Assembly (NCBI RefSeq): GCF_054482525.1
Contig: NZ_CM137006.1
Reading direction: 5' to 3' (one strand)
Length of the DNA stretch: 64,000 nt
The notes beneath the pieces are model-generated. The model was not told where the DNA came from. It searched no databases and saw only the letters and a list, made by a program, of their open reading frames with translations. Of this stretch, positions 7,664 through 61,644 are shown one piece after another (the first letter of the stretch is position 1; the number at the start of each line of letters is the position of its first letter). The position numbers and the translations under genes were made by a program.

Positions 7664-7676
7664 CAGCCAGATGCTG
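7664..7676. repeat. Left copy of 13 bp target-site duplication (cagccagatgctg) of IS4
   Basis: Identical 13-mer found at 9103..9115 directly abutting the other IS4 end. Confidence 0.85.
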
Positions 7677-9102
7677 TAATGCCAGTCAGTTAAGCAACTG
7701 ACTGGCTCTTTTTCGGGGCTGTGGGGTATTTCCAGGGCCTCTCCTTTACCACTCTCGGGAAGGCCCTTTCCCTTCTTGTCGGTAATTTCACAAGTTGTCC
7801 CATACTTGCAAGATCGCGCATCAGCTCCGGTATACGTCCCGGTGAAGCGCCCTGCAATGTCATCAGCATTCTCATCACCATTCCGCATGATTCTGAGAAA
7901 CTCAGTTGATTCGGCCAGTAACCTTTCAGATGTTCCGCCATTTTAATCATCTGATATCTCACCAGATTATAAGCCAGTAAGACACCCCACAGCTCTTGCT
8001 CCACAAGCTCCGGTTTTTTACTTCTCAGCGTCAGCCTGCTCAGTTGCATCGTCTGTTTTATCTCCCTGTATCCCAGTTCGATTTCCCAGCGATGACTGTA
8101 CAGATCCGCCATTTCTCCTCCGGGGAAGCGCATGGCGTCCGTCATCGACGTCAGCAGATGGCAGACTTTTCCTTTGCGCGTCACGGTCAGCAGGCGGGCT
8201 GTCACTTCATTTCCCAGTCCCGGCCACTTTTTTCGTGCCTGCGGGCTGGTTTTCAGCTTCACCAGATGATCGCCTTTACCCAGTTTTCTGATCTCTTCAT
8301 ATTGCGCTCCCTTTCTGAGAGGTATCATCCAGTGGCGGTGTTCTCCCGCCAGGCTCCAGGCATTTAACAGTCCCAGTGAGTAATAACCTTTATCCATTAA
8401 CGTCAGAGTGTTATCGCCGGTTTGTTCTATAAGTTGCTCAGCAAGCTCATTTTCGCTGTTCTTCATCGTGCCGAAGGCTGCAGCCGTCAGCAGATGGCTG
8501 GTCAGTTCCATCTGGCAGACCATTTTGACCTGCGGGTAGAGCGCCGGGTTCCCGGCATGTGTCTGGCGGGGGAAGGCTGCATCGTTCTCTAGTGTATCCG
8601 GTGTGCGCCAGAACACACCATCGATGGCCAGCAGGGTCAGGCCGCACCAGTGCGGATGCGGCGTGGCGTTATGCCAGAGCTGCGCTGTTTTCGTGAACAC
8701 GCGGCGGACAGCCTCACTTCCCAGGCGCTGGCGGGCCTGAATAACGGCACTGGGGGCAACGAAGGGGCGATTGCCCGGCAGCATGATGTCCAGGCGATTC
8801 ACAATCTGGTGAAGAGGTTCTTTACGCTCAAGCGCCATGCCAACAATACACCAGACCATCATTTCGAGGGGAAGACGGCGCTTGCGTAGCGTTACAGTAC
8901 CTGATTCGGCAAGGCAACGAGAGATGAGTTCGGGGTCGAGGTAATCCCCCAGAGAAGTCAGTGGGTTACGCAGAGAATCGTAACGGGATACCAGATCAAG
9001 AGCCTGTCCAATGTGCATAAAAAAATCCGGAAACAAGTGAGCGTTTCCGGATTCTTACACAGCCACTGGATCGGTCAACTGATCCTTAACTGATCGGCAT
9101 TA
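7677..9102 (-). mobile_element. IS4 insertion sequence, complete (1426 bp) with imperfect terminal inverted repeats (taatgcc…/…ggcatta)
   Basis: Length and terminal repeats; internal transposase ORF; flanked by 13 bp direct repeat cagccagatgctg. Confidence 0.9.
7690..9018 (-). CDS. insG: IS4 transposase (InsG-like, DDE family), about 442 aa
   Basis: ORF inside IS4; translation matches IS4 transposase; start placed at MHIGQALD… (listed ORF begins 6 codons earlier). Confidence 0.85.
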
Positions 9103-9115
9103 CAGCCAGATGCTG
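9103..9115. repeat. Right copy of 13 bp target-site duplication of IS4
   Basis: Identical to 7664..7676. Confidence 0.85.
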
Positions 9116-9631
9116 GGCTTTATTGCCGAAAACTATGATCAGGCGCTGACCATCAACGATGTGGCTGAGCACGTCAAACTTAACGCCAACTATGCAATGG
9201 GGATATTCCAGCGGGTCATGCAATTGACGATGAAACAGTACATTACCGCGATGCGCATCAACCACGTTCGCGCGTTACTGAGCGATACCGATAAAAGTAT
9301 TCTCGATATTGCCCTGACGGCAGGCTTTCGTTCGAGTAGCCGTTTTTACAGCACGTTCGGCAAATATGTCGGCATGTCACCGCAACAATACCGCAAACTT
9401 AGCCAACAGCGCCGCCAGACGTTTCCCGGCTAAAGACGATATCAGTATCAGCCAAAAAAATAGTTTAGCCGTCGATAATAAGCAGTGAAAATAATTTAAA
9501 ATAATCACATAACATATTGTTTATAAAAACAAATATTTCAAAAATGTTTGTTTTTCACGCGCTTTACAGCCCGAAAAGGCCGGAAGATACTTGCCCGCAA
9601 CGAAGATTCCTTCATAACCGGGTAAGCAATG

Positions 9632-11899
9632 ATGAAAGTATTAATTGTTGAAAGCGAGTTTCTCCATCAAGACACCTGGGTCGGTAACGCCGTTGAGCGT
9701 CTGGCTGATGCTTTAAGCCAGCAAAATGTTACCGTGATTAAATCCACCTCCTTTGATGATGGTTTTGCCATTCTCTCTTCAAACGAAGCCATTGACTGCC
9801 TGATGTTCAGCTATCAAATGGAACATCCGGACGAACATCAAAACGTCAGACAATTGATCGGTAAGCTTCATGAGCGCCAACAAAACGTGCCGGTCTTCCT
9901 GTTGGGCGATCGGGAAAAAGCCCTCGCCGCAATGGACCGGGATCTGCTGGAGCTTGTCGATGAATTCGCCTGGATTCTGGAAGATACCGCCGACTTTATC
10001 GCCGGACGCGCCGTTGCCGCGATGACCCGCTACCGCCAGCAACTGTTGCCGCCACTGTTCAGCGCGCTGATGAAATATAGCGACATCCATGAATATTCCT
10101 GGGCAGCGCCAGGCCACCAGGGTGGCGTTGGTTTTACCAAAACACCCGCCGGACGTTTCTACCATGACTACTATGGTGAAAACCTGTTCCGCACCGACAT
10201 GGGCATCGAACGAACTTCCCTCGGTTCTTTGCTTGACCATACTGGCGCATTTGGCGAAAGCGAAAAATATGCCGCACGCGTATTTGGTGCCGATCGCTCC
10301 TGGTCGGTAGTCGTCGGTACTTCCGGCTCTAACCGCACCATCATGCAGGCTTGCATGACCGATAACGATGTCGTGGTCGTTGACCGTAACTGCCATAAAT
10401 CCATCGAACAAGGCTTGATGCTGACAGGCGCGAAACCGGTCTACATGGTGCCAAGCCGCAACCGCTACGGCATTATCGGGCCAATCTATCCGCAGGAAAT
10501 GCAACCTGAAACCTTGCAGAAGAAAATCAGTGAAAGCCCGCTGACTAAAGACAAAGCCGGGCAAAAACCGTCTTACTGCGTAGTGACCAACTGTACCTAT
10601 GACGGCGTGTGTTATAACGCTAAAGAAGCGCAGGATCTGCTGGAAAAAACCTCCGATCGGCTGCACTTTGACGAAGCCTGGTACGGCTATGCACGTTTCA
10701 ACCCGATCTATACCGATCACTATGCCATGCGCGGCGAACCTGGCGATCACAACGGTCCTACCGTTTTCGCCACCCACTCCACCCACAAACTGCTGAATGC
10801 GCTGTCACAGGCCTCTTATATTCATGTACGTGAAGGTCGTGGGGCGATTAACTTCTCTCGCTTCAACCAGGCCTACATGATGCATGCCACCACCTCCCCG
10901 CTGTATGCCATCTGCGCATCTAACGACGTGGCGGTGTCGATGATGGACGGCAACAGCGGCCTGTCACTGACCCAGGAAGTGATCGACGAAGCGGTTGATT
11001 TCCGTCAGGCGATGGCGCGGCTGTATAAAGAGTTCACCGCTGACGGTAGCTGGTTCTTCAAACCGTGGAACAAAGAAGTCGTCACCGACCCACAAACCGG
11101 CAAAACCTATGACTTTGCTGACGCACCAACCAAACTGCTGACCACCGTTCAGGACTGCTGGGTAATGCATCCGGGCGAAAGCTGGCACGGCTTCAAAGAT
11201 ATTCCGGATAACTGGAGTATGCTCGACCCGATTAAAGTCAGCATCCTTGCTCCGGGAATGGGTGAAGATGGTGAACTGGAAGAAACCGGTGTTCCAGCGG
11301 CGCTAGTCACTGCCTGGCTTGGTCGCCACGGCATTGTGCCTACCCGCACCACTGACTTCCAAATTATGTTCCTGTTCTCTATGGGCGTAACCCGTGGGAA
11401 ATGGGGGACTCTGGTTAACACCCTTTGCTCCTTCAAACGCCACTATGACGCCAACACACCGCTGGCGCAGGTGATGCCGGAACTTGTTGAACAATATCCT
11501 GACACTTACGCGAACATGGGGATTCACGATCTGGGTGACACCATGTTTGCCTGGCTGAAAGAAAACAACCCTGGCGCACGGTTGAACGAAGCCTATTCCG
11601 GCCTGCCGGTGGCGGAAATCACCCCACGTGAAGCGTACAACGCGATTGTCGACAACAATGTCGAACTGGTATCCATTGAAAATCTGCCAGGACGCATCGC
11701 GGCAAACTCAGTTATCCCGTATCCGCCAGGAATCCCGATGCTGCTGTCTGGTGAAAACTTCGGCGATAAAAACAGTCCGCAAGTAAGTTATTTACGCTCG
11801 CTGCAATCCTGGGACCATCATTTCCCTGGATTTGAACACGAAACAGAAGGGACAGAAATTATTGACGGTATTTACCACGTTATGTGTGTGAAAGCGTAA
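9632..11899 (+). CDS. adiA: Biodegradative (acid-inducible) arginine decarboxylase AdiA, PLP-dependent, 755 aa
   Basis: Translation MKVLIVESEF…; Orn/Lys/Arg decarboxylase architecture; followed by adiY and adiC. Confidence 0.93.
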   Translation: MKVLIVESEFLHQDTWVGNAVERLADALSQQNVTVIKSTSFDDGFAILSSNEAIDCLMFSYQMEHPDEHQNVRQLIGKLHERQQNVPVFLLGDREKALAAMDRDLLELVDEFAWILEDTADFIAGRAVAAMTRYRQQLLPPLFSALMKYSDIHEYSWAAPGHQGGVGFTKTPAGRFYHDYYGENLFRTDMGIERTSLGSLLDHTGAFGESEKYAARVFGADRSWSVVVGTSGSNRTIMQACMTDNDVVVVDRNCHKSIEQGLMLTGAKPVYMVPSRNRYGIIGPIYPQEMQPETLQKKISESPLTKDKAGQKPSYCVVTNCTYDGVCYNAKEAQDLLEKTSDRLHFDEAWYGYARFNPIYTDHYAMRGEPGDHNGPTVFATHSTHKLLNALSQASYIHVREGRGAINFSRFNQAYMMHATTSPLYAICASNDVAVSMMDGNSGLSLTQEVIDEAVDFRQAMARLYKEFTADGSWFFKPWNKEVVTDPQTGKTYDFADAPTKLLTTVQDCWVMHPGESWHGFKDIPDNWSMLDPIKVSILAPGMGEDGELEETGVPAALVTAWLGRHGIVPTRTTDFQIMFLFSMGVTRGKWGTLVNTLCSFKRHYDANTPLAQVMPELVEQYPDTYANMGIHDLGDTMFAWLKENNPGARLNEAYSGLPVAEITPREAYNAIVDNNVELVSIENLPGRIAANSVIPYPPGIPMLLSGENFGDKNSPQVSYLRSLQSWDHHFPGFEHETEGTEIIDGIYHVMCVKA

Positions 11900-12016
11900 C
11901 CACTATTCCGCTGAAGGCGTAATTGTTAAATAACATTACGCCGCCTGGCTTGAGGCCTTTTAAGTATGGCAACGTTTTCATAAAAATTGCTGCAAACAAA
12001 AAATGTCATGCTTTTT

Positions 12017-12043
12017 GCGCGGTCCCACCCCGCGCTTTTTTTT
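12017..12043 (+). terminator. Rho-independent terminator: gcgcggtcccaccccgcgc stem followed by T8
   Basis: Hairpin plus T-run read from sequence downstream of adiA. Confidence 0.5.
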
Positions 12044-12234
12044 GCCTGTTATTTATCCTTTTTTTAGCCTGTAAAAAAATATGTACATGAGAAATTACTA
12101 TAAAAATTTGTAATATTAGTAAAACTCGTTATTTTTATGCATGTTTATATTCATCATACAATTATATAACCATTTCCCGGTATCGCTTCGCTTTAGCGAG
12201 AACTGGTCTTTTATTCGCACTCAGGAGTACATGT

Positions 12235-12996
12235 ATGAGGATTTGCAGCGACCAACCTTGTATTGTTTTATTGACTGAAAAAGATGTCTGGATAAGGGTG
12301 AATGGGAAAGAACCTATTAGCCTTAAAGCTAACCATATGGCGTTATTAAATTGTGAAAATAATATTATCGACGTCTCCTCTCTTAATAACACTTTGGTTG
12401 CTCATATTAGTCACGACATCATCAAAGATTACCTCCGGTTTCTGAATAAAGATCTCTCGCAAATACCAGTATGGCAACGTAGCGCTACGCCCATCCTCAC
12501 TCTGCCATGCCTGACGCCAGACGTCTTTCGCGTTGCCGCGCAACACAGCATGATGCCCGCTGAAACTGAGTCAGAAAAGGAACGAACACGTGCATTATTA
12601 TTCACTGTGCTATCCCGTTTTCTCGACAGTAAAAAATTCCTTTCATTAATGATGTATATGTTACGTAATTGTGTAAGCGACAGCGTTTATCAAATTATTG
12701 AAAGCGATATTCACAAAGACTGGAATCTTAGTATGGTAGCCAGTTGTTTATGTCTTAGCCCAAGTCTGTTAAAGAAAAAGCTGAAAAGCGAAAACACCAG
12801 TTATAGCCAAATAATCACCACCTGCCGCATGCGTTATGCCGTAAATGAATTAATGATGGACGGTAAAAATATCTCTCAGGTTTCACAGTCCTGCGGCTAC
12901 AACAGTACGTCGTACTTTATTTCTGTCTTTAAAGACTTCTACGGTATGACGCCGCTGCATTATGTTAGTCAGCACAGAGAACGCACTGTCGCCTGA
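12235..12996 (+). CDS. adiY: AraC-family regulator AdiY, 253 aa
   Basis: ORF between adiA and adiC; C-terminal AraC HTH region; AT-rich coding sequence. Confidence 0.88.
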   Translation: MRICSDQPCIVLLTEKDVWIRVNGKEPISLKANHMALLNCENNIIDVSSLNNTLVAHISHDIIKDYLRFLNKDLSQIPVWQRSATPILTLPCLTPDVFRVAAQHSMMPAETESEKERTRALLFTVLSRFLDSKKFLSLMMYMLRNCVSDSVYQIIESDIHKDWNLSMVASCLCLSPSLLKKKLKSENTSYSQIITTCRMRYAVNELMMDGKNISQVSQSCGYNSTSYFISVFKDFYGMTPLHYVSQHRERTVA

Positions 12997-13132
12997 TTTT
13001 TAACCTTAACGAAGAGCTATATTAATAACGGCATCAGCGATAACCCGGTCGATAATAATTCAACTATCGAATGCAGGCGTATGATATGACGTAATTTATT
13101 GTCACGAAGCTCGCCTTCGCAGGAGTTTAATT

Positions 13133-14470
13133 ATGTCTTCGGATGCTGATGCTCACAAAGTGGGCTTAATCCCCGTCACCCTGATGGTGTCGGGGAATAT
13201 TATGGGGTCAGGTGTTTATCTGTTACCTGCAAACCTGGCCTCCACTGGCGGGATTGCCATTTATGGATGGTTGGTGACGATTATCGGTGCGCTGGGGCTC
13301 TCGATGGTATACGCCAAAATGTCGTTCCTCGACCCAAGTCCTGGTGGTTCTTACGCTTACGCCCGCCGCTGCTTTGGCCCGTTTCTCGGTTATCAAACCA
13401 ACGTCCTCTACTGGCTGGCCTGCTGGATCGGCAATATCGCCATGGTGGTCATTGGCGTAGGTTATTTAAGTTACTTCTTCCCGATTCTGAAAGATCCATT
13501 GGTATTAACCATCACCTGCGTCGTGGTGCTGTGGATCTTCGTCCTGCTGAATATTGTCGGTCCGAAAATGATCACCCGCGTGCAGGCCGTTGCCACCGTG
13601 CTGGCGCTGATCCCCATCGTCGGGATTGCCGTATTTGGCTGGTTCTGGTTCCGTGGTGAAACCTATATGGCGGCATGGAACGTCAGCGGCCTGGGCACCT
13701 TCGGCGCGATTCAAAGTACCCTTAACGTTACGCTGTGGTCGTTCATCGGTGTGGAAAGTGCCTCCGTTGCCGCAGGTGTGGTGAAAAACCCGAAACGCAA
13801 CGTCCCTATCGCCACCATAGGTGGGGTATTGATTGCCGCCGTTTGCTATGTGCTCTCCACCACCGCGATTATGGGGATGATCCCTAATGCCGCACTGCGC
13901 GTTTCTGCCTCGCCATTCGGTGATGCCGCACGGATGGCGTTGGGTGACACCGCCGGGGCCATTGTTTCCTTCTGCGCAGCTGCGGGTTGCTTAGGTTCAC
14001 TGGGCGGCTGGACGTTGCTGGCGGGGCAAACGGCGAAAGCCGCTGCCGATGACGGACTGTTCCCACCGATTTTTGCCCGTGTAAATAAAGCGGGTACGCC
14101 AGTGGCAGGGCTGATTATCGTCGGTATTTTGATGACCATCTTCCAGCTCAGCAGCATTTCACCAAACGCGACCAAAGAGTTCGGTCTGGTTTCTTCCGTC
14201 TCGGTCATCTTTACACTGGTGCCATATCTTTACACCTGTGCGGCGTTACTGCTGCTCGGCCACGGTCACTTTGGTAAAGCACGCCCGGCATATCTGGCAG
14301 TTACTACCATTGCCTTCCTCTACTGCATCTGGGCCGTGGTGGGGTCCGGGGCGAAAGAGGTTATGTGGTCATTTGTCACCCTGATGGTCATCACCGCCAT
14401 GTATGCGCTGAATTACAACCGGCTGCATAAAAACCCGTATCCCTTAGATGCACCAATAAGCAAAGATTAA
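13133..14470 (+). CDS. adiC: Arginine:agmatine antiporter AdiC (APC family), 445 aa
   Basis: 12-TM hydrophobic ORF; synteny with adiA/adiY. Confidence 0.92.
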
Positions 14471-19925: not shown

Positions 19926-20804
19926 TTACACCAAATTTACAGAGAAGATTTCCTCGACCATTGCCCCCGCCAGACGCTGCGCTGAACAGAGTCGTGGCAT
20001 CCCCAGTGCGACAGTTCGCCAGCGTTGGGTCACTGACCAGCAAACGGGTTGTTTATCTGCCGTGGACCACTTTCCCAGCCAACTTAAAAAATCAGCATGA
20101 TCCCCGCCCGTCGAAACGGTCGAAGAGGCAAACCACTGATGGTAATAGTGACGCGTGGTCGGGGCCGCATTGATACTCTCTGCCAGATGTTGTGTCGCTT
20201 TCACGCGCAAATCACCCAGCAACAACGCCACCGCTTGCGGGCTTCCCAGACGGCAGGCATCGCCAAATCCCCCCCAGCGCAACTCCTCCAGAACGATAAA
20301 ACAGCGCCCAGGCAACGACCAGGCGTTATACGCCCCAGCACGCCAGCGGGTAAAAATTTGCTCGCTCTGTTCACCCGCCTGCACCAGTAGGCCTCGTTGC
20401 GTTAACGCCTTTTCCTTCCAGCGACAACGGGCTGAAAACCACTCATACAAGGCGGCAATTTGCTGGGGGAGCTCAGGGAAAGCAGAGTGCTGGCGGTGAT
20501 CCATTTTTTGCAGCAGCGCCAGATGTTGCGCGATCTGCGTCAGCGCCAGATGACCGGGATCCAGCATCGAAGCCAGTTTTTCCACCAATGTCAGACGCAG
20601 GCTAAGCGGCGCATTTAACATCCCGCCGTTCGTCCATGCCTGAAGCTGCACACGCGCAAGAAGTTCCTGCATCAGTCGTTCACGAAACTGCTGCTGATGG
20701 GGTTGTGGATGGCGGACATCATCGCCCTGCGCCAGATCCACTAAAAAGCGCGGATGAACCGACTCCAGCACGCGACCGGGGCCGTCCAGTAACGTCTTGG
20801 TCAA
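19926..20804 (-). CDS. yjcZ: Uncharacterised protein YjcZ, 292 aa
   Basis: ORF immediately downstream of crfC, 4-bp overlap with crfC stop; matches K-12 yjcZ by position and length. Confidence 0.8.
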   Translation of the reverse strand: MTKTLLDGPGRVLESVHPRFLVDLAQGDDVRHPQPHQQQFRERLMQELLARVQLQAWTNGGMLNAPLSLRLTLVEKLASMLDPGHLALTQIAQHLALLQKMDHRQHSAFPELPQQIAALYEWFSARCRWKEKALTQRGLLVQAGEQSEQIFTRWRAGAYNAWSLPGRCFIVLEELRWGGFGDACRLGSPQAVALLLGDLRVKATQHLAESINAAPTTRHYYHQWFASSTVSTGGDHADFLSWLGKWSTADKQPVCWSVTQRWRTVALGMPRLCSAQRLAGAMVEEIFSVNLV

Positions 20805-23029
20805 TATCGTTCTGCCGTGAAAAGTGTTTGAATATCATCGCGTAACAGCTGAGCGTCGGTGTAAATCCAGCTGTGAGTCATCACAGCCTGCTGCAATTGC
20901 TGCTGCATCAGCCTGACCACCGATTCATTTTGTTGACGCAGAGCCAGGCTTTCGCGTAAACGCGTCTGTAATTCCGTCAAACATGAAGCGAACTCAGCGA
21001 AAAAAGTATTCATGCCTGCCGTAACAGATTCATCGACCTGCTCTGCCAGAACTTTAGCCATTTGTTGGCAATAAAGATCGACTTCTGCGCTTAATGCTCG
21101 TTGCAACACACTGTAATCAACCGTCTCTGTCGGGGATTTCTCATTTCCCCGTCCCCAGTCGGGCTGATTCAACCAGCGCGAAAAAGTCTCACGCACAACG
21201 CCTAAACGCGTGCTCTGCTCGTCCGTTGCTTCCTGGCGCGAAATGACTTCACTGAACAGCTGGCGAGTGTTGAAGTGGGGAACTGCGCCGTGAAAAACAG
21301 GAAAATGAAACCCAGGACGAAACCCTGACTCGCTCAATTCCATTTTGATTTGTTGCTCAATGGGCCGAATAACATCGGTTAACACCCGGCAAAGGGTGGA
21401 TTCCAGCTCGGCAAAACGCAGCGTAAAGTCGCGACTGATGGTGTTCTGCGCCGTCTGTAACAGTGTCTCACAGCGGGTACGAATCTCGCTTAACGGCTCC
21501 GAATCATCCTGAAACAAGGCGGCTAACTGCGCATTCAGCGCATCTTGCTGTTGACGCAGAAAGTGGTTGGCGGAGGTCAGGGCCAGCTCGATTTCATGTT
21601 TAATCTCGCCGCTCACCTGCGCCTGATTGAGTTGCAATAGCTGCAAACTTTCTTCGATCTGATGGATATTTTGCCGCAATTGTTCACAAGCGACGTTTAA
21701 CCCGTGCGCACGAAAATCCAGGTATTCCCGCGCCTGCTGCGCGTAATTCAACAGTTTATGCGCGGCAGATCGCAGAGCATACAACGAGGCGTTAGCGTAA
21801 GCGGCATGAAGCAACGCCTGAATTGGCTGGGCGAACAGCGAATCTTCCCACAACTGATCGGCAGCATGACGAATATGTTCGAGGTCCGCCAGATCGGCAT
21901 GACGCCAGCGCCTGCCGAGCGCGGCATGGGCAAAATCTTCCACCCAGCGTTGTTGCTCTGGCGGTGGTAACTTACCGTTGTTGGCTAACTCATGGCGCGC
22001 CCGATTCGCCAGGTAGCCCCACATCGACGACACCGGAAATATCTGCTGTGGCGTAATACAGCCTTTCATCAGCGTCCCGGAAATCAGTGCCCGCACCTGG
22101 TCGGCGTCGTCACTGTTACGATCCTGTTGATCGAACTTATTGACCAGCACATACAGCGGCACCGATTGCCCCACCGCCAAAATCGCCTCACGGACCTCTT
22201 CATCGGAGATCGATTTCAGTTGCGTATAATCCAGCACCGCCAGTACCGCCGAGGCGCGTGCCAGCTGCTGGTTAAGCATTTTTTGCAGATGCGGTTGCCC
22301 GGCTTCATTTGGCCCAGGGGTATCCAGTAACGTCAACTGACCGGGATAACTCTCCAGCCCCGCCAGATGGACAAACTCCACTTCAATCACGGGAATATAC
22401 TCAATGGCGGCGTAAGCAGAAAAAGGAAAATCGACGTCCAGCGCCTTCGCCAGTCGCACCAAATCATTCAAACTTTTCAGACAATGAAAAATAGGCTGGG
22501 CACCCAGATAATATTTTTCGAAAGCGACGCCATTTTCGATCCGCTGCATAAGCGCACGCATATCTTTATCTATTTCCAGCACATCGGTCAGATGCTTAAT
22601 ATCGCAATCACACAGGCGCTGTTGTAATTTTTGAATTAAACAATCGATTGGCGCGACATGTGAAAAATGCAGTACCGGTTCCTTTTGCCCGGGCGTATGG
22701 CGAATAAGCGTCGGCAGCGCAGTCATTGGGCGATTACGATTAGGCAAAACCTCCGTACCAACAATGGCATTAATGGTAGTTGATTTCCCTGCTTTCATGG
22801 TACCGACAATCGCCAGCACCATTTCCAGTCGGGAAATTTTACGCAACTCATTATTCAGCATCGCGTGACGTTCGGCGATATTAGGCTGACTCCAGGGTAA
22901 AGCCAGTTGTGGCGCATCGTCTCCGGGGACAGAGAGAGGCATTTTTTCCAGTAACTGCAACTGTTGGCGAGAAAGCTGTAACAGGCGTTCAGCCTCCTGA
23001 CTTAACTCATACAGGGTCTGTGTGTACAT
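20801..23029 (-). CDS. crfC: Dynamin-like GTPase CrfC (YjdA), 742 aa
   Basis: Large ORF with N-terminal P-loop (GTMKAGKST) GTPase domain; position between phnA and yjcZ. Confidence 0.85.
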   Translation of the reverse strand: MYTQTLYELSQEAERLLQLSRQQLQLLEKMPLSVPGDDAPQLALPWSQPNIAERHAMLNNELRKISRLEMVLAIVGTMKAGKSTTINAIVGTEVLPNRNRPMTALPTLIRHTPGQKEPVLHFSHVAPIDCLIQKLQQRLCDCDIKHLTDVLEIDKDMRALMQRIENGVAFEKYYLGAQPIFHCLKSLNDLVRLAKALDVDFPFSAYAAIEYIPVIEVEFVHLAGLESYPGQLTLLDTPGPNEAGQPHLQKMLNQQLARASAVLAVLDYTQLKSISDEEVREAILAVGQSVPLYVLVNKFDQQDRNSDDADQVRALISGTLMKGCITPQQIFPVSSMWGYLANRARHELANNGKLPPPEQQRWVEDFAHAALGRRWRHADLADLEHIRHAADQLWEDSLFAQPIQALLHAAYANASLYALRSAAHKLLNYAQQAREYLDFRAHGLNVACEQLRQNIHQIEESLQLLQLNQAQVSGEIKHEIELALTSANHFLRQQQDALNAQLAALFQDDSEPLSEIRTRCETLLQTAQNTISRDFTLRFAELESTLCRVLTDVIRPIEQQIKMELSESGFRPGFHFPVFHGAVPHFNTRQLFSEVISRQEATDEQSTRLGVVRETFSRWLNQPDWGRGNEKSPTETVDYSVLQRALSAEVDLYCQQMAKVLAEQVDESVTAGMNTFFAEFASCLTELQTRLRESLALRQQNESVVRLMQQQLQQAVMTHSWIYTDAQLLRDDIQTLFTAERY

Positions 23030-23352
23030 AGAAAATTCTTCCTTAAAGCAAATTTTGTTACTTTTATTTAGCCAGATTGTTTTTGAGTTCTGTTTTCGGC
23101 TTTTATAATTACTGCAAGAAATAATTTTATATTTAGCGTGTTGTTTTTTATTAGAATAAATAACGTCTTCCGATACGTTTAAAACGTCAGAAAGATAAAA
23201 ATATCATTTGAATTAAAAAAAGAACAAGTAGAGCATTAACCTTATCTTAAATAATAAATGGAGGCAAAAAGATTATTTTCTTTTTGCGTTTCCTTTCAAA
23301 TGAAAACGATCGTCGTCTAAAATCAGCAGTACCCCCGACAAACTCAGGGATT

Positions 23353-23362
23353 TTGTGTATAA
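23353..23362 (+). promoter_or_regulatory. Candidate extended -10 element (tgtgtataat) upstream of phnA
   Basis: TGnTATAAT match read from sequence in AT-rich intergenic region; no -35 verified. Confidence 0.3.
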
Positions 23363-23430
23363 TTGCGGCCTTTTTCGGCAATCTGCCGTTTTTTGGCGCT
23401 TTTGCCCTGCTGACTTTTGAGGAAATCCAC

Positions 23431-23766
23431 ATGTCATTACCACACTGCCCAAAATGCAACTCCGAATACACCTACGAAGATAACGGCATGTACATCTGCC
23501 CGGAATGTGCCTACGAATGGAACGACGCAGAACCTGCAGAGGAAAGCGACGAGCTGATCGTTAAAGATGCTAACGGCAATCTGCTGGCTGACGGCGACAG
23601 CGTTACCATCATTAAAGATCTGAAGGTGAAAGGTAGCTCTTCGATGCTGAAAATTGGCACCAAAGTGAAAAACATCCGCCTGGTTGAAGGCGACCATAAC
23701 ATCGATTGCAAAATCGACGGTTTTGGTCCGATGAAACTGAAATCTGAGTTTGTGAAAAAGAACTGA
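23431..23766 (+). CDS. phnA: Zinc-ribbon protein PhnA (YjdM), 111 aa
   Basis: [30 protein letters not shown]… with CxxC…CxxC motifs; listed ORF extends further upstream but real start is ATG at 23431. Confidence 0.88.
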
Positions 23767-36226: not shown

Positions 36227-36241
36227 GGTAATGACTCCAAC

Positions 36242-36745
36242 TTATTGATAGTGTTTTATGTTCAGATAATGCCCGATGACTTTGTCATGCAGCTCCACCG
36301 ATTTTGAGAACGACAGCGACTTCCGTCCCAGCCGTGCCAGGTGCTGCCTCAGATTCAGGTTATGCCGCTCAATTCGCTGCGTATATCGCTTGCTGATTAC
36401 GTGCAGCTTTCCCTTCAGGCGGGATTCATACAGCGGCCAGCCATCCGTCATCCATATCACCACGTCAAAGGGTGACAGCAGGCTCATAAGACGCCCCAGC
36501 GTCGCCATAGTGCGTTCACCGAATACGTGCGCAACAACCGTCTTCCGGAGACTGTCATACGCGTAAAACAGCCAGCGCTGGCGCGATTTAGCCCCGACAT
36601 AGCCCCACTGTTCGTCCATTTCCGCGCAGACGATGACGTCACTGCCCGGCTGTATGCGCGAGGTTACCGACTGCGGCCTGAGTTTTTTAAGTGACGTAAA
36701 ATCGTGTTGAGGCCAACGCCCATAATGCGGGCAGTTGCCCGGCAT
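36242..36745 (-). CDS. insB: IS1 InsB frame, 167 aa (expressed as InsAB-prime transposase by -1 frameshift)
   Basis: Translation matches IS1 InsB; overlaps insA 3-prime end around the ttaaaaaactc slippery motif. Confidence 0.9.
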
Positions 36746-36939
36746 CCAACGCCATTCATGGCCATATCAATGATTTTCTGGTGCGTACCGGGTTGAGAAG
36801 CGGTGTAAGTGAACTGCAGTTGCCATGTTTTACGGCAGTGAGAGCAGAGATAGCGCTGATGTCCGGCGGTGCTTTTGCCGTTACGCACCACCCCGTCAGT
36901 AGCTGAACAGGAGGGACAGCTGATAGAAACAGAAGCCAC
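36664..36939 (-). CDS. insA: IS1 InsA, 91 aa
   Basis: [43 protein letters not shown]… zinc-finger/HTH protein of IS1. Confidence 0.92.
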
Positions 36940-37238
36940 TGGAGCACCTCAAAAACACCATCATACACTAAATCAGTAAGTTGGCAGCATCACCTGTGCT
37001 CAGTATTTGCCGAAGTACAATATATATAATAAATATATAAAACACCTCATATTATTTACAGAGATAATAAATTCGCGTACTTTTCCCTCTTCAGCACAAA
37101 TGCCTAATAAAGTGGCGCGTTCAGCTCACACTTCTACTTATTAAAGTCGCAATTTCCCAATTATGATAACGCCAGCTTTAAATGACGTATTTTGCATGGA
37201 TTACATATTTACGACATAAATGATAAATGGAGATTTAT

Positions 37239-39224
37239 ATGAATAACTCTCGGTTATTCCGTTTGAGCAGGATTGTTATTGCGTTAACTGCCGCCAGCGG
37301 CATGATGGTAAATACCGCTTACGCAACAGATGAAGCGAAAGCCGCCACTCAATATACCCAACAGATTAATCAGAATTACGCCAAATCATTACCTTTTAGC
37401 GATCGTCAAGATTTTGACGATGCCCAGCGTGGATTTATCGCTCCGCTGCTGGATGAAGGTATTCTGCGTGATGCTAACGGCAAAGTTTACTACCGCGCAG
37501 ACGATTACAAATTTGATATTAATGCCGCTGCGCCGGAAACCGTAAACCCCAGCCTGTGGCGTCAGTCGCAAATCAACGGTATTTCTGGCCTGTTCAAAGT
37601 CACCGATAAAATGTATCAGGTGCGCGGCCAGGATATCTCTAACATTACGTTCGTTGAGGGCGAGAAAGGCATTATTGTTATCGACCCGCTGGTGACGCCG
37701 CCTGCCGCAAAAGCCGCACTTGATCTTTACTTCCAGCATCGTCCGCAAAAACCGATTGTTGCTGTGATTTACACCCACAGCCACGCCGACCATTATGGCG
37801 GTGTGAAAGGCATTATCTCTGAAGCGGATGTTAAATCCGGCAAAGTGCAGGTGATCGCTCCGGCAGGCTTTATGGACGAAGCCATCAGCGAAAACGTGCT
37901 GGCGGGTAACATCATGAGCCGCCGTGCGCTCTACTCTTACGGTCTGTTACTGCCGCACAACGCGCAAGGCAACGTGGGCAACGGCCTGGGCGTGACGCTG
38001 GCAACCGGCGACCCGAGCATTATTGCACCGACTAAAACTATCGTCAGAACTGGCGAGAAGATGATTATCGACGGCCTGGAGTTTGACTTCCTGATGACTC
38101 CGGGTAGCGAAGCGCCAGCCGAAATGCACTTCTATATTCCGGCCCTGAAAGCCCTGTGTACCGCCGAGAACGCCACGCATACCCTGCACAACTTCTACAC
38201 TCTGCGCGGCGCGAAAACCCGCGATACCAGCAAGTGGACCGAGTACCTGAACGAAACGCTGGATATGTGGGGTAACGACGCGGAAGTACTGTTTATGCCG
38301 CACACCTGGCCGGTCTGGGGCAATAAGCATATCAATGATTATATTGGTAAATATCGCGATACTATCAAGTACATTCACGACCAGACCCTGCACCTGGCGA
38401 ACCAGGGCTACACCATGAATGAAATCGGCGACATGATTAAGCTGCCGCCTGCGCTTGCCAATAACTGGGCCAGCCGCGGCTATTACGGTTCTGTCAGCCA
38501 CAACGCCCGCGCGGTGTATAACTTCTATCTTGGCTATTACGACGGTAACCCGGCTAACCTGCATCCATATGGTCAGGTGGAGATGGGTAAACGTTACGTG
38601 CAAGCTCTGGGCGGTTCTGCCCGCGTCATCAACCTGGCGAAAGAAGCGAACAAGCAAGGTGATTATCGCTGGTCGGCAGAACTGCTGAAACAGGTGATTG
38701 CCGCCAACCCTGGTGACCAGGTCGCGAAGAATCTGCAAGCGAATAACTTTGAACAGCTGGGCTATCAGGCCGAGTCCGCCACCTGGCGCGGTTTCTACCT
38801 GACCGGCGCGAAAGAGCTGCGCGAAGGGGTGCATAAATTCAGCCACGGCACCACCGGTTCCCCGGACACCATTCGCGGAATGTCGGTCGAAATGCTGTTC
38901 GACTTTATGTCCGTTCGCCTCGATAGTGCGAAAGCCGCGGGTAAAAATATCAGCCTGAACTTCAATATGAGCAACGGCGATAACCTCAACCTGACGCTGA
39001 ACGATAGCGTGCTTAACTACCGTAAAACGCTGCAACCTGAAGCCAACGCCTCTTTCTACATCAGCCGTGAAGATCTTCACGCCGTGCTGACCGGACAAGC
39101 CAAAATGGCGGATCTGGTAAAAGCGAAGAAAGCCAAAATTATTGGCAATGGCGCGAAACTGGAAGAAATTATTGCCTGTCTGGATAATTTCGATTTGTGG
39201 GTGAATATCGTAACCCCAAATTAA
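37239..39224 (+). CDS. yjcS: Metallo-beta-lactamase-fold alkyl/aryl-sulfatase YjcS, 661 aa
   Basis: Signal peptide, [10 protein letters not shown] metal-binding motif, C-terminal SCP2-like region; start at MNNSRLF. Confidence 0.88.
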
Positions 39225-39234
39225 TGCCACTCAC

Positions 39235-39262
39235 TTTTGGGGGCCCTTAAGCCCCCAAAAGC
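39235..39262. terminator. Near-perfect palindromic hairpin cttttgggggc ccttaa gcccccaaaag flanked by A/T runs (bidirectional terminator candidate)
   Basis: Read from sequence immediately after yjcS stop. Confidence 0.55.
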
Positions 39263-39432
39263 ATTTATTTAAAAAATATATACAGCAAATTAATACATAA
39301 AATATATAAGTTATGAATGCGGTGGCTGAATAAAGCTATTTTTATTCATCGAGAAAATAGCCATACTGACGCCTTCAATGGATATTGATATTCACTACAG
39401 ATATTGTTCGCAGCAGACAGGATGTATTTAAT

Positions 39433-39708
39433 ATGCCAACAGTTCTCTCTCGCATGGCGATGCAACTCAAAAAAACAGCCTGGATAATTCCCGTCTTCAT
39501 GGTTTCGGGATGCTCATTATCTCCGGCAATCCCGGTGATCGGCGCTTATTATCCCAGCTGGTTTTTCTGCGCCATTGCCAGCCTTATTTTGACGCTCATC
39601 ACGAGGCGAATTATTCAGCGGGCAAATATCAATCTGGCATTTGTCGGAATTATTTATACCGCCCTTTTTGCTCTCTACGCCATGCTGCTCTGGCTGGCAT
39701 TTTTCTAA
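39433..39708 (+). CDS. ytcA: Small lipoprotein YtcA, about 91 aa
   Basis: Lipobox MVSGCSL; immediately upstream of mdtN; start at MPTVLSRMAMQLKK (listed ORF starts at an upstream codon). Confidence 0.7.
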   Translation: MPTVLSRMAMQLKKTAWIIPVFMVSGCSLSPAIPVIGAYYPSWFFCAIASLILTLITRRIIQRANINLAFVGIIYTALFALYAMLLWLAFF

Positions 39709-39726
39709 TCTATTTGAGACGCGCTC

Positions 39727-40758
39727 ATGGAAAGTACGCCGAAAAAAGCTCCTCGCAGTAAATTCCCTGCTCTGTTAGTGGTTGCGTTGGCGCTGGTTGC
39801 CCTTGTTTTCGTTATCTGGCGCGTAGACAGTGCGCCATCAACTAATGACGCCTACGCGTCAGCAGATACCATTGATGTGGTGCCGGAAGTCAGCGGTCGC
39901 ATTGTAGAACTGGCGGTCACCGACAACCAGGCGGTGAAACAGGGTGATTTGCTATTCCGCATCGACCCACGCCCATACGAAGCCAATCTGGCGAAAGCCG
40001 AAGCCTCCCTCGCGGCGCTGGATAAGCAAATTATGCTCACCCAACGTAGCGTTGACGCGCAACAGTTTGGTGCCGACTCGGTTAATGCCACGGTAGAAAA
40101 AGCCCGTGCCGCCGCGAAACAGGCCACAGATACATTACGCCGCACCGAGCCATTACTGAAAGAAGGTTTTGTCTCAGCGGAAGACGTTGACCGTGCAAGA
40201 ACTGCGCAGCGCGCCGCAGAAGCCGATCTTAATGCCGTATTGTTGCAGGCGCAGTCAGCCGCCAGTGCCGTCAGCGGCGTCGATGCGCTGGTCGCCCAAC
40301 GTGCGGCGGTCGAAGCGGATATTGCCCTGACCAAACTGCATCTGGAAATGGCGACCGTTCGCGCGCCGTTTGATGGCCGGGTCATTTCCCTCAAAACCTC
40401 CGTCGGGCAATTTGCTTCTGCCATGCGCCCTATTTTTACCCTAATCGACACTCGTCACTGGTACGTGATCGCCAACTTCCGCGAAACCGATCTGAAAAAT
40501 ATTCGCTCAGGTACACCCGCAACGATTCGCCTGATGAGCGACAGCGGCAAAACCTTCGAGGGTAAAGTGGATTCGATTGGCTACGGCGTGCTACCGGATG
40601 ACGGCGGTCTGGTGCTGGGCGGCCTGCCGAAAGTGTCTCGTTCTATTAACTGGGTCCGCGTTGCCCAGCGTTTTCCGGTCAAAATCATGGTTGATAAACC
40701 TGACCCGGAAATGTTCCGCATCGGCGCTTCGGCAGTCGCTAATCTTGAGCCGCAATAA
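39727..40758 (+). CDS. mdtN: Efflux pump membrane fusion protein MdtN (HlyD family), 343 aa
   Basis: N-terminal TM anchor, coiled-coil and lipoyl-like domains. Confidence 0.88.
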   Translation: MESTPKKAPRSKFPALLVVALALVALVFVIWRVDSAPSTNDAYASADTIDVVPEVSGRIVELAVTDNQAVKQGDLLFRIDPRPYEANLAKAEASLAALDKQIMLTQRSVDAQQFGADSVNATVEKARAAAKQATDTLRRTEPLLKEGFVSAEDVDRARTAQRAAEADLNAVLLQAQSAASAVSGVDALVAQRAAVEADIALTKLHLEMATVRAPFDGRVISLKTSVGQFASAMRPIFTLIDTRHWYVIANFRETDLKNIRSGTPATIRLMSDSGKTFEGKVDSIGYGVLPDDGGLVLGGLPKVSRSINWVRVAQRFPVKIMVDKPDPEMFRIGASAVANLEPQ

Positions 40759-42809: not shown

Positions 42810-44305
42810 TCAATCGTCAACTTTCACGTCTGCTGTTGTGCAGCATTCTCGGCAGCACGACGCTGATTTCCGGCTGTGCCCTGGTACGTAAGGATTCTGC
42901 ACCTCATCAACAGCTCAAACCGGAACAAATCAAACTGGCCGATGATATTCATCTTGCCAGCTCCGGCTGGCCGCAGGCGCAGTGGTGGAAACAACTCAAT
43001 GACCCGCAGCTGGATGCGCTGATCCAACGGACGCTAAGTGGTTCACACACCCTCGCCGAAGCGAAACTGCGGGAAGAAAAAGCGCAGTCGCAGGCCGATT
43101 TGTTAGATGCCGGTTCACAGTTGCAGGTGGCCGCGTTAGGGATGCTCAACCGACAACGTGTCTCGGCGAACGGCTTTTTAAGCCCTTATGCGATGGATGC
43201 GCCAGCACTGGGTATGGACGGGCCGTACTATACGGAAGCCACAGTCGGTTTGTTTGCCGGACTGGATCTTGATTTGTGGGGTGTGCATCGCTCAGCGGTT
43301 GCCGCCGCCATTGGCGCGCATAATGCCGCGCTGGCAGAAACCGCAGCAGTAGAGCTATCGCTGACCACGGGCGTAGCGCAGCTTTATTACAGTATGCAGG
43401 CCAGCTATCAGATGCTCGATCTGTTAGAACAAACACGCGATGTGATTGATTACGCGGTGAAAGCGCACCAGAGTAAAGTGGCGCACGGTCTGGAAGCGCA
43501 CCAGAGTAAAGTGGCGCACGGTCTGGAAGCGCAAGTGCCTTTCCACGGCGCGCGGGCACAGATTCTGGCGGTCGATAAACAAATTGCTGCCGTTAAAGGG
43601 CAAATCACCGAAACGCGAGAATCTCTGCGTGCATTGATTGGCGCGGGAGCCAGCGATATGCCGGAGATCAAACCGGTGGCATTACCGCAAGTCCAGACCG
43701 GCATTCCGGCGACACTCTCTTATGAGTTGCTCGCCAGACGCCCGGATCTGCAAGCCATGCGCTGGTATGTTCAGGCGTCATTAGATCAGGTGGATTCCGC
43801 GCGGGCGCTGTTCTATCCGAGCTTTGATATCAAAGCGTTTTTCGGCCTGGATTCTATCCACCTGGATACCTTATTCAAAAAAACCAGTCGCCAGTTCAAC
43901 TTTATCCCAGGTCTGAAATTGCCGCTGTTTGACGGTGGACGGTTGAATGCCAATCTCGAAGGCACTCGCGCCGCCAGCAACATGATGATTGAACGTTACA
44001 ACCAGTCAGTGCTGAATGCGGTGCGCGACGTTGCCGTCAACGGCACGCGTCTGCAAACGCTCAACGACGAGCGAGAGATGCAGGCTGAACGCGTGGAAGC
44101 AACGCGCTTCACCCAGCGCGCTGCCGAGGCCGCCTATCAACGCGGCTTAACCAGCCGCTTACAGGCCACCGAAGCCCGGTTGCCAGTGCTTGCCGAGGAG
44201 ATGTCATTACTGATGCTGGACAGCCGCCGGGTGATCCAAAGCATTCAGTTGATGAAATCGCTGGGCGGCGGGTATCAGGCAAGTCCCGTCGTCGAGAAAA
44301 AATAA
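42806..44305 (+). CDS. mdtP: Outer membrane efflux factor MdtP (TolC-like), 499 aa, containing an 11-residue tandem duplication
   Basis: Lipoprotein signal (LISGCAL); OMF family; internal repeat HQSKVAHGLEA x2. Confidence 0.88.
   Translation: MINRQLSRLLLCSILGSTTLISGCALVRKDSAPHQQLKPEQIKLADDIHLASSGWPQAQWWKQLNDPQLDALIQRTLSGSHTLAEAKLREEKAQSQADLLDAGSQLQVAALGMLNRQRVSANGFLSPYAMDAPALGMDGPYYTEATVGLFAGLDLDLWGVHRSAVAAAIGAHNAALAETAAVELSLTTGVAQLYYSMQASYQMLDLLEQTRDVIDYAVKAHQSKVAHGLEAHQSKVAHGLEAQVPFHGARAQILAVDKQIAAVKGQITETRESLRALIGAGASDMPEIKPVALPQVQTGIPATLSYELLARRPDLQAMRWYVQASLDQVDSARALFYPSFDIKAFFGLDSIHLDTLFKKTSRQFNFIPGLKLPLFDGGRLNANLEGTRAASNMMIERYNQSVLNAVRDVAVNGTRLQTLNDEREMQAERVEATRFTQRAAEAAYQRGLTSRLQATEARLPVLAEEMSLLMLDSRRVIQSIQLMKSLGGGYQASPVVEKK
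43461..43533 (+). repeat. Perfect 33 bp tandem duplication (aagcgcaccagagtaaagtggcgcacggtctgg x2, plus 7 bp of a third unit) inside mdtP
   Basis: Read directly from sequence; in-frame. Confidence 0.95.
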
Positions 44306-47511: not shown

Positions 47512-48825
47512 TTATTGATCCGCAGTTTTATCAAATTTGCCCAGCACTTCACGCTCATAAGCCAGCGCTTTCTTACGGTCAAATTTGTGTTCCCACTTGG
47601 CAATCACCAGCACCGCCAGCGCATTACCCACCACGTTCAGCGCAGTACGCGCCATATCGAGGATACGGTCAACACCGGCAATAAATGCCAGACCTTCCAG
47701 CGGAATACCTACGCTACCCAGCGTTGCCAGCAGCACCACAAACGACACGCCCGGCACGCCAGCAATCCCTTTCGAGGTCACCATCAGCGTCAGCACCAGA
47801 ATGATTTCCTGCCAGATGGACAGGTCAATGCCATACAACTGCGCGATGAAGATAGCGGCAATACTTTGATACAGCGTCGAACCATCAAGGTTAAAAGAGT
47901 AACCGGTCGGCACCACGAAACTGGTGATCGACGCCGGTGCACCGTAGGCTTCCATCTTCTCAATAATTCGCGGCAACACGCTTTCAGAGCTGGCAGTGGA
48001 GTACGCCAGAATCAGCTCATCTTTCAGAATACGAATCAGGATCCAGACGCTTAACCCGCACAGGCGCGCCACAATTCCCAGCACTACCAGCGCGAAGAAC
48101 AGAATGGCGAAATGCACCAGCAGCACCAGTTTCGCCAGTGGCCACAGAGAAGAGAAACCAAAGTTAGCCACCGTCACCGCAATCAGCGCAAACACACCCA
48201 CCGGTGCATAACGCATCACCATGTGAGTCACTTTAAACATGGTTTCAGAGATGGAGCGGAACACGGTCACCAGCGGTTCACGATGCGTCGCGGGCAGGGA
48301 GGAAAGCCCCAGACCAAACAGCACCGAGAAGAAGATGATCGGCAGCATTTCGCCTTTCGCCATCGACGCCACAATGTTCGTCGGCACCAGCGACAAAATC
48401 GTGCCCATAATGCCGTGGGAACTGCTTTGTACCGCTTCCGTAGTGCTCTGATATTTCGAGATATCGACGGTCGCCAGCTGCGACATATCCACCCCGGCAC
48501 CGGGCTGGAAGACGTTCGCCAGAGTGATCCCCAAAATGATGGCGACGGTGGTGATCACCTCGAAGTAAATAATGGTTTTCGCGCCAATACGCCCGAGCTG
48601 TTTGGCATCACCAACACCCGCGATACCCACCACCAGCGTGGAGATCACAATCGGCACAACAATCATTTTGATCAGATGGATGAAGATATCACCCGCCGGA
48701 GAGAGCAAATTGACGACCAGCCAGTCGCGGCTGTCGCTATGGTAGTGCAGGTAGCTTCCCAGGAGAATGCCCAGCACCATAGCAAACAGAATCTGCCAAG
48801 CCAGGCTGAATTTTATATTTTTCAT
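47512..48825 (-). CDS. gltP: Glutamate/aspartate:proton symporter GltP (DAACS family), 437 aa
   Basis: Full-length ORF; translation matches GltP. Confidence 0.93.
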   Translation of the reverse strand: MKNIKFSLAWQILFAMVLGILLGSYLHYHSDSRDWLVVNLLSPAGDIFIHLIKMIVVPIVISTLVVGIAGVGDAKQLGRIGAKTIIYFEVITTVAIILGITLANVFQPGAGVDMSQLATVDISKYQSTTEAVQSSSHGIMGTILSLVPTNIVASMAKGEMLPIIFFSVLFGLGLSSLPATHREPLVTVFRSISETMFKVTHMVMRYAPVGVFALIAVTVANFGFSSLWPLAKLVLLVHFAILFFALVVLGIVARLCGLSVWILIRILKDELILAYSTASSESVLPRIIEKMEAYGAPASITSFVVPTGYSFNLDGSTLYQSIAAIFIAQLYGIDLSIWQEIILVLTLMVTSKGIAGVPGVSFVVLLATLGSVGIPLEGLAFIAGVDRILDMARTALNVVGNALAVLVIAKWEHKFDRKKALAYEREVLGKFDKTADQ

Positions 48826-54105: not shown

Positions 54106-55584
<1,479 letters not shown>

Positions 55585-58119: not shown

Positions 58120-60080
<1,961 letters not shown>

Positions 60081-61550: not shown

Positions 61551-61644
61551 GGTTAAGCCGAAGAACAGCCAATGAATTGACTTTAAAAGAGAGATAACTT
61601 ATTTGTTTTAGAATCATGTATGTTAGCCCGAGCTAACCTGTTAA

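Follow-up and report, generated by a model that had tools for sequence, protein, structure and literature searches.

In this study, we analysed the 1,233 bp that lie between adiA and adiC (positions 11900-13132) in a 64,000-nucleotide stretch of Escherichia coli DNA (contig NZ_CM137006.1), hereafter the window, and found that this AT-rich block, whose GC content is 0.39 by direct count versus 0.530 for the window, is an ancient part of the E. coli core genome and not a recent import. The block is probably to be understood as the regulatory core of the locus for arginine-dependent acid resistance, its AT-richness being linked to the H-NS-dependent low expression of the regulator adiY. Every element of this picture is already known, including the locus, repression by H-NS, the pH-sensing histidines of AdiY, control by SgrS, the adiA terminator and AdiZ. 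Our additions are modest and comprise the retention of the GC deficit at saturated synonymous sites, the extension of the range of the terminator module to Hafnia and Kluyvera, and a Hafnia AdiY homologue.

Layout and base composition of the adiA-adiC interval

Positions 11800-13200 are 100% identical to E. coli PCN033, where they are annotated as adiA, adiY and adiC, and the three open reading frames on one strand (9629-11899, 12235-12996 and 13133-14470) correspond to genes in the K-12 reference order melR-adiA-adiY-adiC-eptA (Table 1). The K-12 cluster (b4117-b4115) has the same genes in the same order, with 98.7% identity in adiY DNA and 100% identity in the adiC promoter spacer. It differs at the strain level only, by an 11-bp T-rich indel upstream of adiY, near 12051-12061, and by the IS4 element that interrupts melR here, outside the block. 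AdiY of E. coli K-12 has reportedly also been characterised by Stim-Herndon in 1996 and Brameyer in 2022. The IS4 element (7677-9102), inserted in melR upstream of adiA, is the nearest mobile element, and is strain-specific and unrelated to the AT-rich block; a melR deletion, suspected from an odd list of open reading frames, was ruled out in favour of this insertion. Small open reading frames of 20-55 aa also occur in the spacer, and we found no grounds for regarding them as genes.

Table 1. Features of the adi locus in the window, with the evidence for each and GC content.
Feature	Coordinates	Strand	Evidence and remarks	GC
adiA, biodegradative arginine decarboxylase	9629..11899	+	Open reading frame list; annotation of identical PCN033 and of K-12; RefSeq start 9632	0.525
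adiA 3'UTR, counterpart of Salmonella AdiZ (STnc1180)	11900..12043	+	Alignment with homologues; 144 nt	0.431
Stem-loop GGCGTAAT-N11-ATTACGCC within the adiA 3'UTR	11916..11942	+	Fold; RNAalifold	
adiA intrinsic terminator GCGCGG-N7-CCGCGC + T8, preceded by a U-run	12017..12043	+	Terminator scan; fold; conservation	
adiY promoter and 5' leader	12044..12234	+	Conservation; AT core 12044-12170	0.298 (core 0.213)
adiY, AraC/XylS-family activator of adiA and adiC, 253 aa	12235..12996	+	Pfam; K-12 identity	0.412 (GC3 0.449)
adiY-adiC spacer with the adiC promoter	12997..13132	+	100% identical to K-12	0.382
adiC, arginine:agmatine antiporter	13133..14470	+	Open reading frame list; annotation	0.547

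An initial annotation had described adiY and its leader as AT-rich relative to adiA and adiC, and direct counts bear this out, with GC contents of 0.412 for adiY and 0.355 for the 335-bp adiA-adiY spacer (11900-12234) versus 0.525 and 0.547 for the flanking genes. In the sliding-window profile that had been proposed as a check, GC content departs from the window mean of 0.530 and dips to a minimum of 0.33-0.34 around 11950-12400. The stretch originally singled out, 12100-12996, has a GC content of 0.397, which ranks it within the bottom 2.4% when every 897-bp window of the 64 kb is considered. A start at 12100 could not be retained as a boundary. Composition changes sharply where adiA stops and where adiC starts, and the AT-rich unit is the entire segment 11900-13132. 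In the block, the density of A/T tracts of at least 4 and of TpA steps is about double that in the window overall. The AT extreme of the block is 12044-12170, whose GC content is far under that of other spacers.

The low GC content of adiY extends to all three codon positions (GC1, GC2 and GC3 of 0.421, 0.366 and 0.449, respectively), and among the 52 annotated genes of the region it has the second lowest GC content (z = -2.4) and the third lowest GC3. Combining the amino acid composition of AdiY, in which Gly and Ala are scarce and Ser, Lys, Asn, Met and Cys abundant, with regional codon usage gives an expected GC content of 0.483, compared with 0.412 observed and a regional gene mean of 0.543. 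The deficit relative to that mean is thus about half due to amino acid composition (~0.06) and about half to AT-biased codon choice (~0.07). AT-richness is not a feature of the other regulators encoded in the window (melR, 0.507 with a GC3 of 0.63; dcuR, 0.499; basR, 0.520; phnF, 0.627).

The adiA 3'UTR and its terminator

In Salmonella, RNase E cuts the adiA 3'UTR to release the Hfq-binding sRNA AdiZ (STnc1180; Kanda et al. 2025, PMC12746102). AdiZ is a stable RNA of ~90-95 nt that is bound to Hfq and has seeds that pair with ptsG, pykF and dmsA, all of which has been shown for Salmonella only (PMC12746102). The U-run and terminator constitute the Hfq-binding module of AdiZ, and this U-rich sequence and intrinsic terminator are nearly perfectly kept in Escherichia-Shigella, Citrobacter and Salmonella, with the adiZ homologues of the Escherichia-Shigella group forming one cluster (PMC12746102). 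The adiA terminator also shields adiY from adiA transcription, in addition to being, in Salmonella, a source of AdiZ (PMC12746102).

The corresponding DNA in the window carries the U-rich and terminator module of an AdiZ-type sRNA, with CUUUUU, GCGCGG-N7-CCGCGC and U8 at 12011-12043. In our alignment, the UUUUU-GCGCGG-N7-CCGCGC-U7/8 module and an upstream TATTGCTGCAAA...TGTCATAC block show no or almost no variation, including in the Salmonella adiAZYC locus, which has the same gene order. Judged by this alignment, E. coli 11900-12043 is a homologue of the 3'UTR that yields AdiZ. The two regions are not identical in form, as the E. coli 3'UTR is 144 nt long versus ~105 nt in Salmonella, has an extra 5' stem-loop at 11916-11942, and carries a 4-U run at the position of the 8-U RNase E site of Salmonella. 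In addition, the SgrS-like seed of AdiZ is not conserved in Escherichia (PMC12746102). An Rfam scan of 11500-13500 at E <= 1 returned four chance-level matches far under their gathering scores, with no AdiZ/STnc1180 family among them.

These results revise the anatomy of the region. The initial annotation had treated the ~330 bp upstream of adiY as its leader and had placed two candidate terminator hairpins within it, at 11916-11942 and 12017-12043. The region is indeed AT-rich, but only part of it is leader, its first 144 nt being the adiA 3'UTR with the AdiZ module, and both hairpins fall within this AdiZ-homologous 3'UTR. One of them is a terminator: 12017-12043, the terminator of adiA, is the sole terminator-like site called in a scan of 11700-13300, and it has a fold z-score of -2.85 and a stem that is invariant in eight of eight sequences. 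The other, 11916-11942, has no U-tract (the sequence after the stem is GCCUGGCUUGAGG), and the terminator scan makes no call there. The segment containing it (11905-11965) folds at -18.1 kcal/mol (z = -2.05), and RNAalifold keeps a stem of 8 bp in which two of the eight pairs show compensatory changes between Escherichia and Citrobacter amalonaticus/sedlakii. The stem-loop is missing from Salmonella and the C. freundii group. Hairpin 11916-11942 is a conserved internal stem-loop of the 3'UTR and not a terminator.

The terminator module itself accompanies adiY over a wide range that reaches Hafnia and Kluyvera. It was identified in 28 loci, namely 27 of the 31 with an adiY match together with E. 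albertii L004, whose contig stops short of adiY, and in no complete adiA locus without adiY.

AdiY, its promoter and H-NS

The product of adiY is an AraC/XylS-family protein, with scores of 62.1 bits to PF00165 (HTH_AraC; cut-off 26.6) and 55.1 bits to PF12833 (HTH_18; cut-off 33.6). It is 99.6% identical to K-12 AdiY over 253 aa and is encoded on the same strand between adiA and adiC, which identifies it as the AdiY orthologue. No AdiY-specific NCBIfam model scored over its cut-off, the best match being the GadX model, at 153.6 bits (cut-off 500). Both His34 and His60 are present; these residues form the cytoplasmic pH sensor of AdiY, which then activates the adiA and adiC promoters and not its own (PMC12826058). 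AdiY acts as a tetramer and, at pH 6, binds at ~120 nM to the adiC promoter, represented by the 200 bp upstream of adiC (PMC12826058). In all non-Escherichia orthologues that we examined His60 is replaced by Arg or Lys, a replacement noted earlier for Salmonella and Citrobacter by the authors who described the pH sensor (PMC12826058).

The nearest E. coli paralogue of AdiY is EnvY (57% identity), followed by GadX, AppY, YdeO and GadW. EnvY (b0566) aligns over the full 253 aa but carries Tyr34 and Arg60 where AdiY has histidines, and its gene, which adjoins ompT at the edge of the DLP12 prophage, is less AT-rich than adiY (GC 0.463, GC3 0.591). The acid-resistance and virulence regulator genes gadX, gadW, ydeO and appY of E. 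coli and hilC/hilD of Salmonella belong to the same subfamily by profile scores and BLASTP (33-38% identity) and have GC contents of 0.32-0.42. Low GC content is common to adiY and its paralogues gadX (0.410), gadW (0.418), ydeO (0.395) and appY (0.317), but not to melR, the neighbouring AraC-family gene (0.503-0.507). The genomic setting of adiY is different from that of these relatives, as it occupies a conserved core position between two structural genes of normal GC content, whereas its gad, app and hil relatives are found in more extensive AT-rich islands (the acid fitness island, the DLP12 neighbourhood and SPI-1).

Upstream of adiY, the blocks conserved among Escherichia, Citrobacter and Salmonella include TTATTTT(T/A)ATGC, ATTCATCATACAAT, and the Shine-Dalgarno sequence CAGGAGT. 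Possibly, ATTCATCATACAAT contains a -10 element, the candidate being TACAAT at 12157-12162. A scan for consensus promoters found six sites, none of them at the conserved TACAAT block, compared with 4.0 +/- 2.3 expected, and the promoter consensus is therefore not enriched. In reporter fusions, the 300 bp that precede adiY behave as a weak promoter whose activity is low under all tested conditions, and AdiY shows no binding to them (Gallo et al. 2025, PMC12826058). The sRNA SgrS pairs with and represses adiY mRNA, at least as this work is cited in PMC8989999 and PMC12746102.

That adiY is silenced by H-NS, as had been suggested from its composition, is borne out by published experiments, and such repression is already known. 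The mRNA of adiY rises ~5-fold in an hns mutant, and in competitive gel shifts H-NS preferentially binds the fragment that carries the adiY promoter (Krin et al. 2010, PMC2984483), and adiY is also up when overexpression of an sRNA lowers hns mRNA (Gaida et al. 2013, PMC3794604). H-NS repression has been reported alike for gadX, gadW, ydeO and adiY (PMC2984483). According to a remark by Krin et al. (PMC2984483), the H-NS target lists from ChIP-chip in 2006 did not include adiY, and in a genomic SELEX paper adiY appears in one family table only. The AT content of the block is that of an H-NS-silenced locus (GC 0.39 versus 0.53, core 0.21, with twofold densities of A/T tracts and TpA steps). The 10-bp high-affinity H-NS motif TCGATAAATT is not enriched: allowing up to two mismatches, it occurs three times in the block compared with 2.3 +/- 1.5 times in composition-matched shuffles, and a count of three is reached by 17.5% of windows of the block's size.

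Conservation, origin and maintenance of the low GC content

The possibility that adiY and its upstream DNA are a recent, foreign AT-rich insert that still bears the signature of its donor was raised by the low GC content at all three codon positions, by the sharp edges of composition at the adiA stop and adiC start, and by the location of the relatives gadX, ydeO, appY, hilC and hilD in islands or prophage-adjacent DNA. We consider recent acquisition highly improbable. The block (11800-13200) was recovered from 5417 of the 5426 complete E. coli genomes, at no less than 80% coverage in 5404, and adiY is 98.7% identical to K-12, a divergence like that of its flanks (98.5-98.6% for adiA, adiC and eptA). 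The block occupies the same place in Salmonella and Citrobacter, which have the melR...eptA-basR context in common with Escherichia. Matches on plasmids are few (20 of 72,556 records); among the 10 listed, four are of 4.8-4.9 Mb, most others of 0.3-1 Mb and one of only 94 kb, and since they are mostly Mb-scale they look like chromosome-derived records. There are no mobile-element features beside the block and no element-like flanking repeats, the repeats detected being a single direct repeat of 13 nt, at 11963 and 12468, and a single imperfect inverted repeat of the same length. The marks of a recent island that we looked for, namely patchy presence, a history distinct from that of the flanks, and signatures of mobility such as repeats, IS elements or plasmid copies, were thus lacking in the block or, in the case of plasmid copies, nearly so, and our literature search found no paper that connects adiY with AT-richness or horizontal gene transfer.

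Among 80 adiA loci of other species that we compared for the presence of adiY and adiC, together with Escherichia itself, the order adiA-adiY-adiC was found in Escherichia, Citrobacter, Salmonella, Hafnia and two further Enterobacteriaceae. In genera other than Escherichia, Salmonella and Citrobacter, the chromosomal surroundings of the entire adi cluster are different. The ranks of AdiY identity track those of AdiA (Spearman 0.86, n = 30). Hafnia has a full-length, syntenic AdiY homologue, where a published survey with a strict BLAST cut-off had none. The comparison with the Salmonella adi locus, which had been proposed as a check, gave a similar deficit to that in E. coli (adiY 0.42 versus 0.53-0.57 for its flanks). 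More broadly, in each of the 21 loci with adiY, which range from Escherichia to Hafnia, adiY has a GC content 0.09-0.14 under the adiA/adiC mean, even though local GC content among these loci spans 0.45 (Hafnia) to 0.55 (C. sedlakii). The GC3 of adiY in these loci is 0.34-0.53 versus 0.50-0.73 for the flanks. Comparison of E. coli adiY with that of Citrobacter, Salmonella, Yokenella, Hafnia or Enterobacteriaceae strain 89 gives an identity of only 0.24-0.42 at four-fold degenerate sites, and these sites are therefore essentially randomised; even so, the GC4 of adiY is under the values for adiA and adiC in each of these genomes. A donor signature cannot outlast such turnover, and therefore the composition reflects a continuing process at the adiY locus. 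Low GC content is no evidence of recent transfer because it has been kept across genera despite this saturation. The adiY locus is thereby a clean, small case in which compositional detectors of horizontal gene transfer, and the label of xenogeneic silencing, are misleading for an ancient core regulator.

Of the horizontal acquisition suggested in the initial annotation, what remains is a possible ancient event. In Xenorhabdus, adiA and adiC are 18-66 bp apart, with neither adiY nor the terminator module between them, and the AT-rich block is exactly the DNA that is extra to this arrangement. In Vibrionaceae, Shewanella and others, a different antiporter lies upstream and adiY is absent. As adiA and adiC are adjacent without adiY in Xenorhabdus, the ancient insertion of a cassette composed of the terminator, adiY and the adiC promoter is plausible. 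The change may be a gain in Enterobacteriaceae/Hafniaceae or, alternatively, a loss in Xenorhabdus.

A further explanation is passive drift, in which the universal GC-to-AT mutation bias acts on a weakly expressed, fast-evolving adiY with little selection on its codon usage and on its non-coding flanks, and H-NS binding is a by-product rather than the cause of the retained composition. In favour of drift, adiY evolves considerably faster than its neighbours (AdiY of Hafnia is 50% identical, compared with 81% for AdiA and 92% for AdiC), has saturated four-fold sites and a promoter of consistently low activity (PMC12826058), and lies in a block where the specific H-NS motif is not enriched. Nevertheless, we regard drift as rather unlikely, as it does not fit with the normal GC content of the other regulators of the window (melR, dcuR, basR and phnF), with a promoter core whose GC content of 0.21 is far under that of other spacers, with a near-equal deficit in 21 genomes of differing base composition, or with the low GC content shared by the paralogous, H-NS-controlled gadX, gadW, ydeO and appY.

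The reading we prefer is that of a regulatory core kept AT-rich in connection with H-NS. The parts of the block are, in succession, the adiA 3'UTR and AdiZ-type terminator, a weak AT-rich adiY promoter and leader, adiY itself and the adiC promoter. H-NS binds the adiY promoter region and holds adiY ~5-fold repressed, and AdiY, upon sensing cytoplasmic pH via His34 and His60, activates the adiA and adiC promoters. An ancestor of the adiY-bearing Enterobacterales may have gained the cassette of terminator, adiY and adiC promoter by insertion between adiA and adiC genes that were then adjacent, and the AT-richness of this cassette may since have been maintained as it sets an H-NS-dependent, low and conditional expression of the regulator. 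Maintenance by selection is what we infer; a rarely expressed, fast-evolving gene that is subject to mutation bias and weak selection could show the same pattern.

Some loci carry additional DNA within this interval. Between adiA and adiY, Yokenella, Kluyvera, Kosakonia and Enterobacter sp. Bisph1 carry an extra 1.5-2.3 kb of AT-rich DNA, and the adiA-linked regulators of these four are about equally similar to AdiY and EnvY. The Yokenella insert encodes GadE-like (45% identity), HdeD-like (52%) and HdeA-like (72%) proteins, and the inserts of the other three, based on their size and GC content, probably also contain gadE/hdeD/hdeA-like genes. Potentially, and we put this forward as a tentative idea that we would sooner doubt than accept, the AT-rich cassette has been a selected silencing handle for well over 100 million years (our estimate from the saturation of synonymous sites across genera), with the spacer serving as a landing pad for acid-resistance genes and the AdiZ module always accompanying adiY. 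If so, H-NS would keep the regulator at a very low copy number, and activation of the Adi system would be heterogeneous, in the manner of bet-hedging.

AdiY in Hafnia and the residue at position 60

AdiY was reported to be absent from Hafnia by Brameyer et al. (2022), who used a BLAST cut-off of e < 1e-100. Our comparison of adiA loci collected from other genomes revealed an intact homologue of 253 aa in both Hafnia alvei and H. paralvei (49–51% identity), which scored higher against AdiY than against EnvY, its closest E. coli paralogue. The coordinates of these homologues and of the other features are listed in the table. His60 is one of two histidines reported to be essential for pH sensing by AdiY (PMC12826058), and the authors of that study had noted an arginine at this position in Salmonella and Citrobacter. 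Position 60 is Arg or Lys in all of the non-Escherichia AdiY orthologues we examined, including those of Hafnia, Yokenella, Kluyvera and Kosakonia, and EnvY likewise has Arg or Lys there rather than His. His34 is mostly kept among the orthologues examined.

Coordinates of features in the window and in the comparison loci
Feature	Sequence	Position	Description
AdiY homologue, Hafnia	L024	2712-3470	between adiA and adiC
AdiY homologue, Hafnia	L025	8603-9361	between adiA and adiC
Insert, Yokenella	L018	8397-10112	adiA-adiY spacer; ~2.2 kb, GC 0.43
IS4 target duplication	window	7664-7676; 9103-9115	13 bp, CAGCCAGATGCTG
IS4 element	window	7677-9102	1,426 bp; interrupts melR, ~530 bp upstream of adiA start
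GC peak	window	8500-8800	GC 0.63
Direct repeat AGTATGGCAACGT	window	11963-11975	adiA 3'UTR (AdiZ-like region)
Direct repeat AGTATGGCAACGT	window	12468-12480	adiY coding sequence
AdiY residue 60	window	12412-12414	His60
crfC	window	~20800-23030	
Low-GC patch	window	~22700-23650	yjdM-crfC spacer
IS1 copy	window	36227-36994	768 bp; InsA 91 aa, InsB 167 aa
Low-GC patch	window	~38950-39750	ytcA-yjcS spacer
Length difference	window	~43494-43500	mdtP/mdtO region
Low-GC patch	window	~48650-49350	nrfG-gltP spacer
Low-GC patch	window	~55350-56150	acs-nrfA spacer
yjcF	window	~59950-61800	pentapeptide-repeat protein

Variation of the adi locus among genomes

The Yokenella insert encodes GadE-like (45% identity), HdeD-like (52%) and HdeA-like (72%) proteins, and therefore components of the acid fitness island known from E. 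coli are located within the adi locus of this genus. AT-rich inserts of 1.5–2.3 kb (GC 0.39–0.42) also lie between adiA and adiY in Kluyvera, Kosakonia and Enterobacter sp. Bisph1, and the loci with an insert similar in size to that of Yokenella are L019, L046, L023 and L074. A GTDB species representative labelled E. coli SCPM-O-B-8794 (L047) has an identity to the window of only 0.65–0.75 when the four-fold degenerate positions in its adiA, adiY and adiC genes are compared, and the proteins that these genes encode are 96–100% identical. This representative behaves like a separate Escherichia lineage, unlike typical E. coli.

Insertion sequences and other differences from PCN033

The IS4 element has terminal inverted repeats (TAATGCC.../...GGCATTA) and encodes a transposase of 447 aa with Nterm_IS4 and DDE_Tnp_1 domains. 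It is missing from melR in both K-12 and PCN033, the latter being 99.97% identical otherwise, and its presence accounts for the GC peak at 8500–8800. PCN033 also lacks the IS1 copy. This copy is intergenic, separating yjcS from a short gene of the RpiB/LacA/LacB family, and its flanks overlap by 9 bp. A length difference of ~33 bp from PCN033 in the mdtP/mdtO region, where the overlap of the BLAST segments is 7 bp in the window versus 40 bp in PCN033, may represent a change in repeat copy number. In the PCN033 genome annotation, crfC is a pseudogene with an internal stop.

Base composition and a short repeat

The gene with the lowest GC in the window is yjcF (GC 0.339, GC3 0.332), which is below adiY, and the remaining low-GC patches are all spacers. 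An exact 13-nt direct repeat has one copy in the adiA 3'UTR and one in adiY, both on one strand; it may be a coincidence, its naive chance expectation being ~0.01–0.02 in 1.35 kb.
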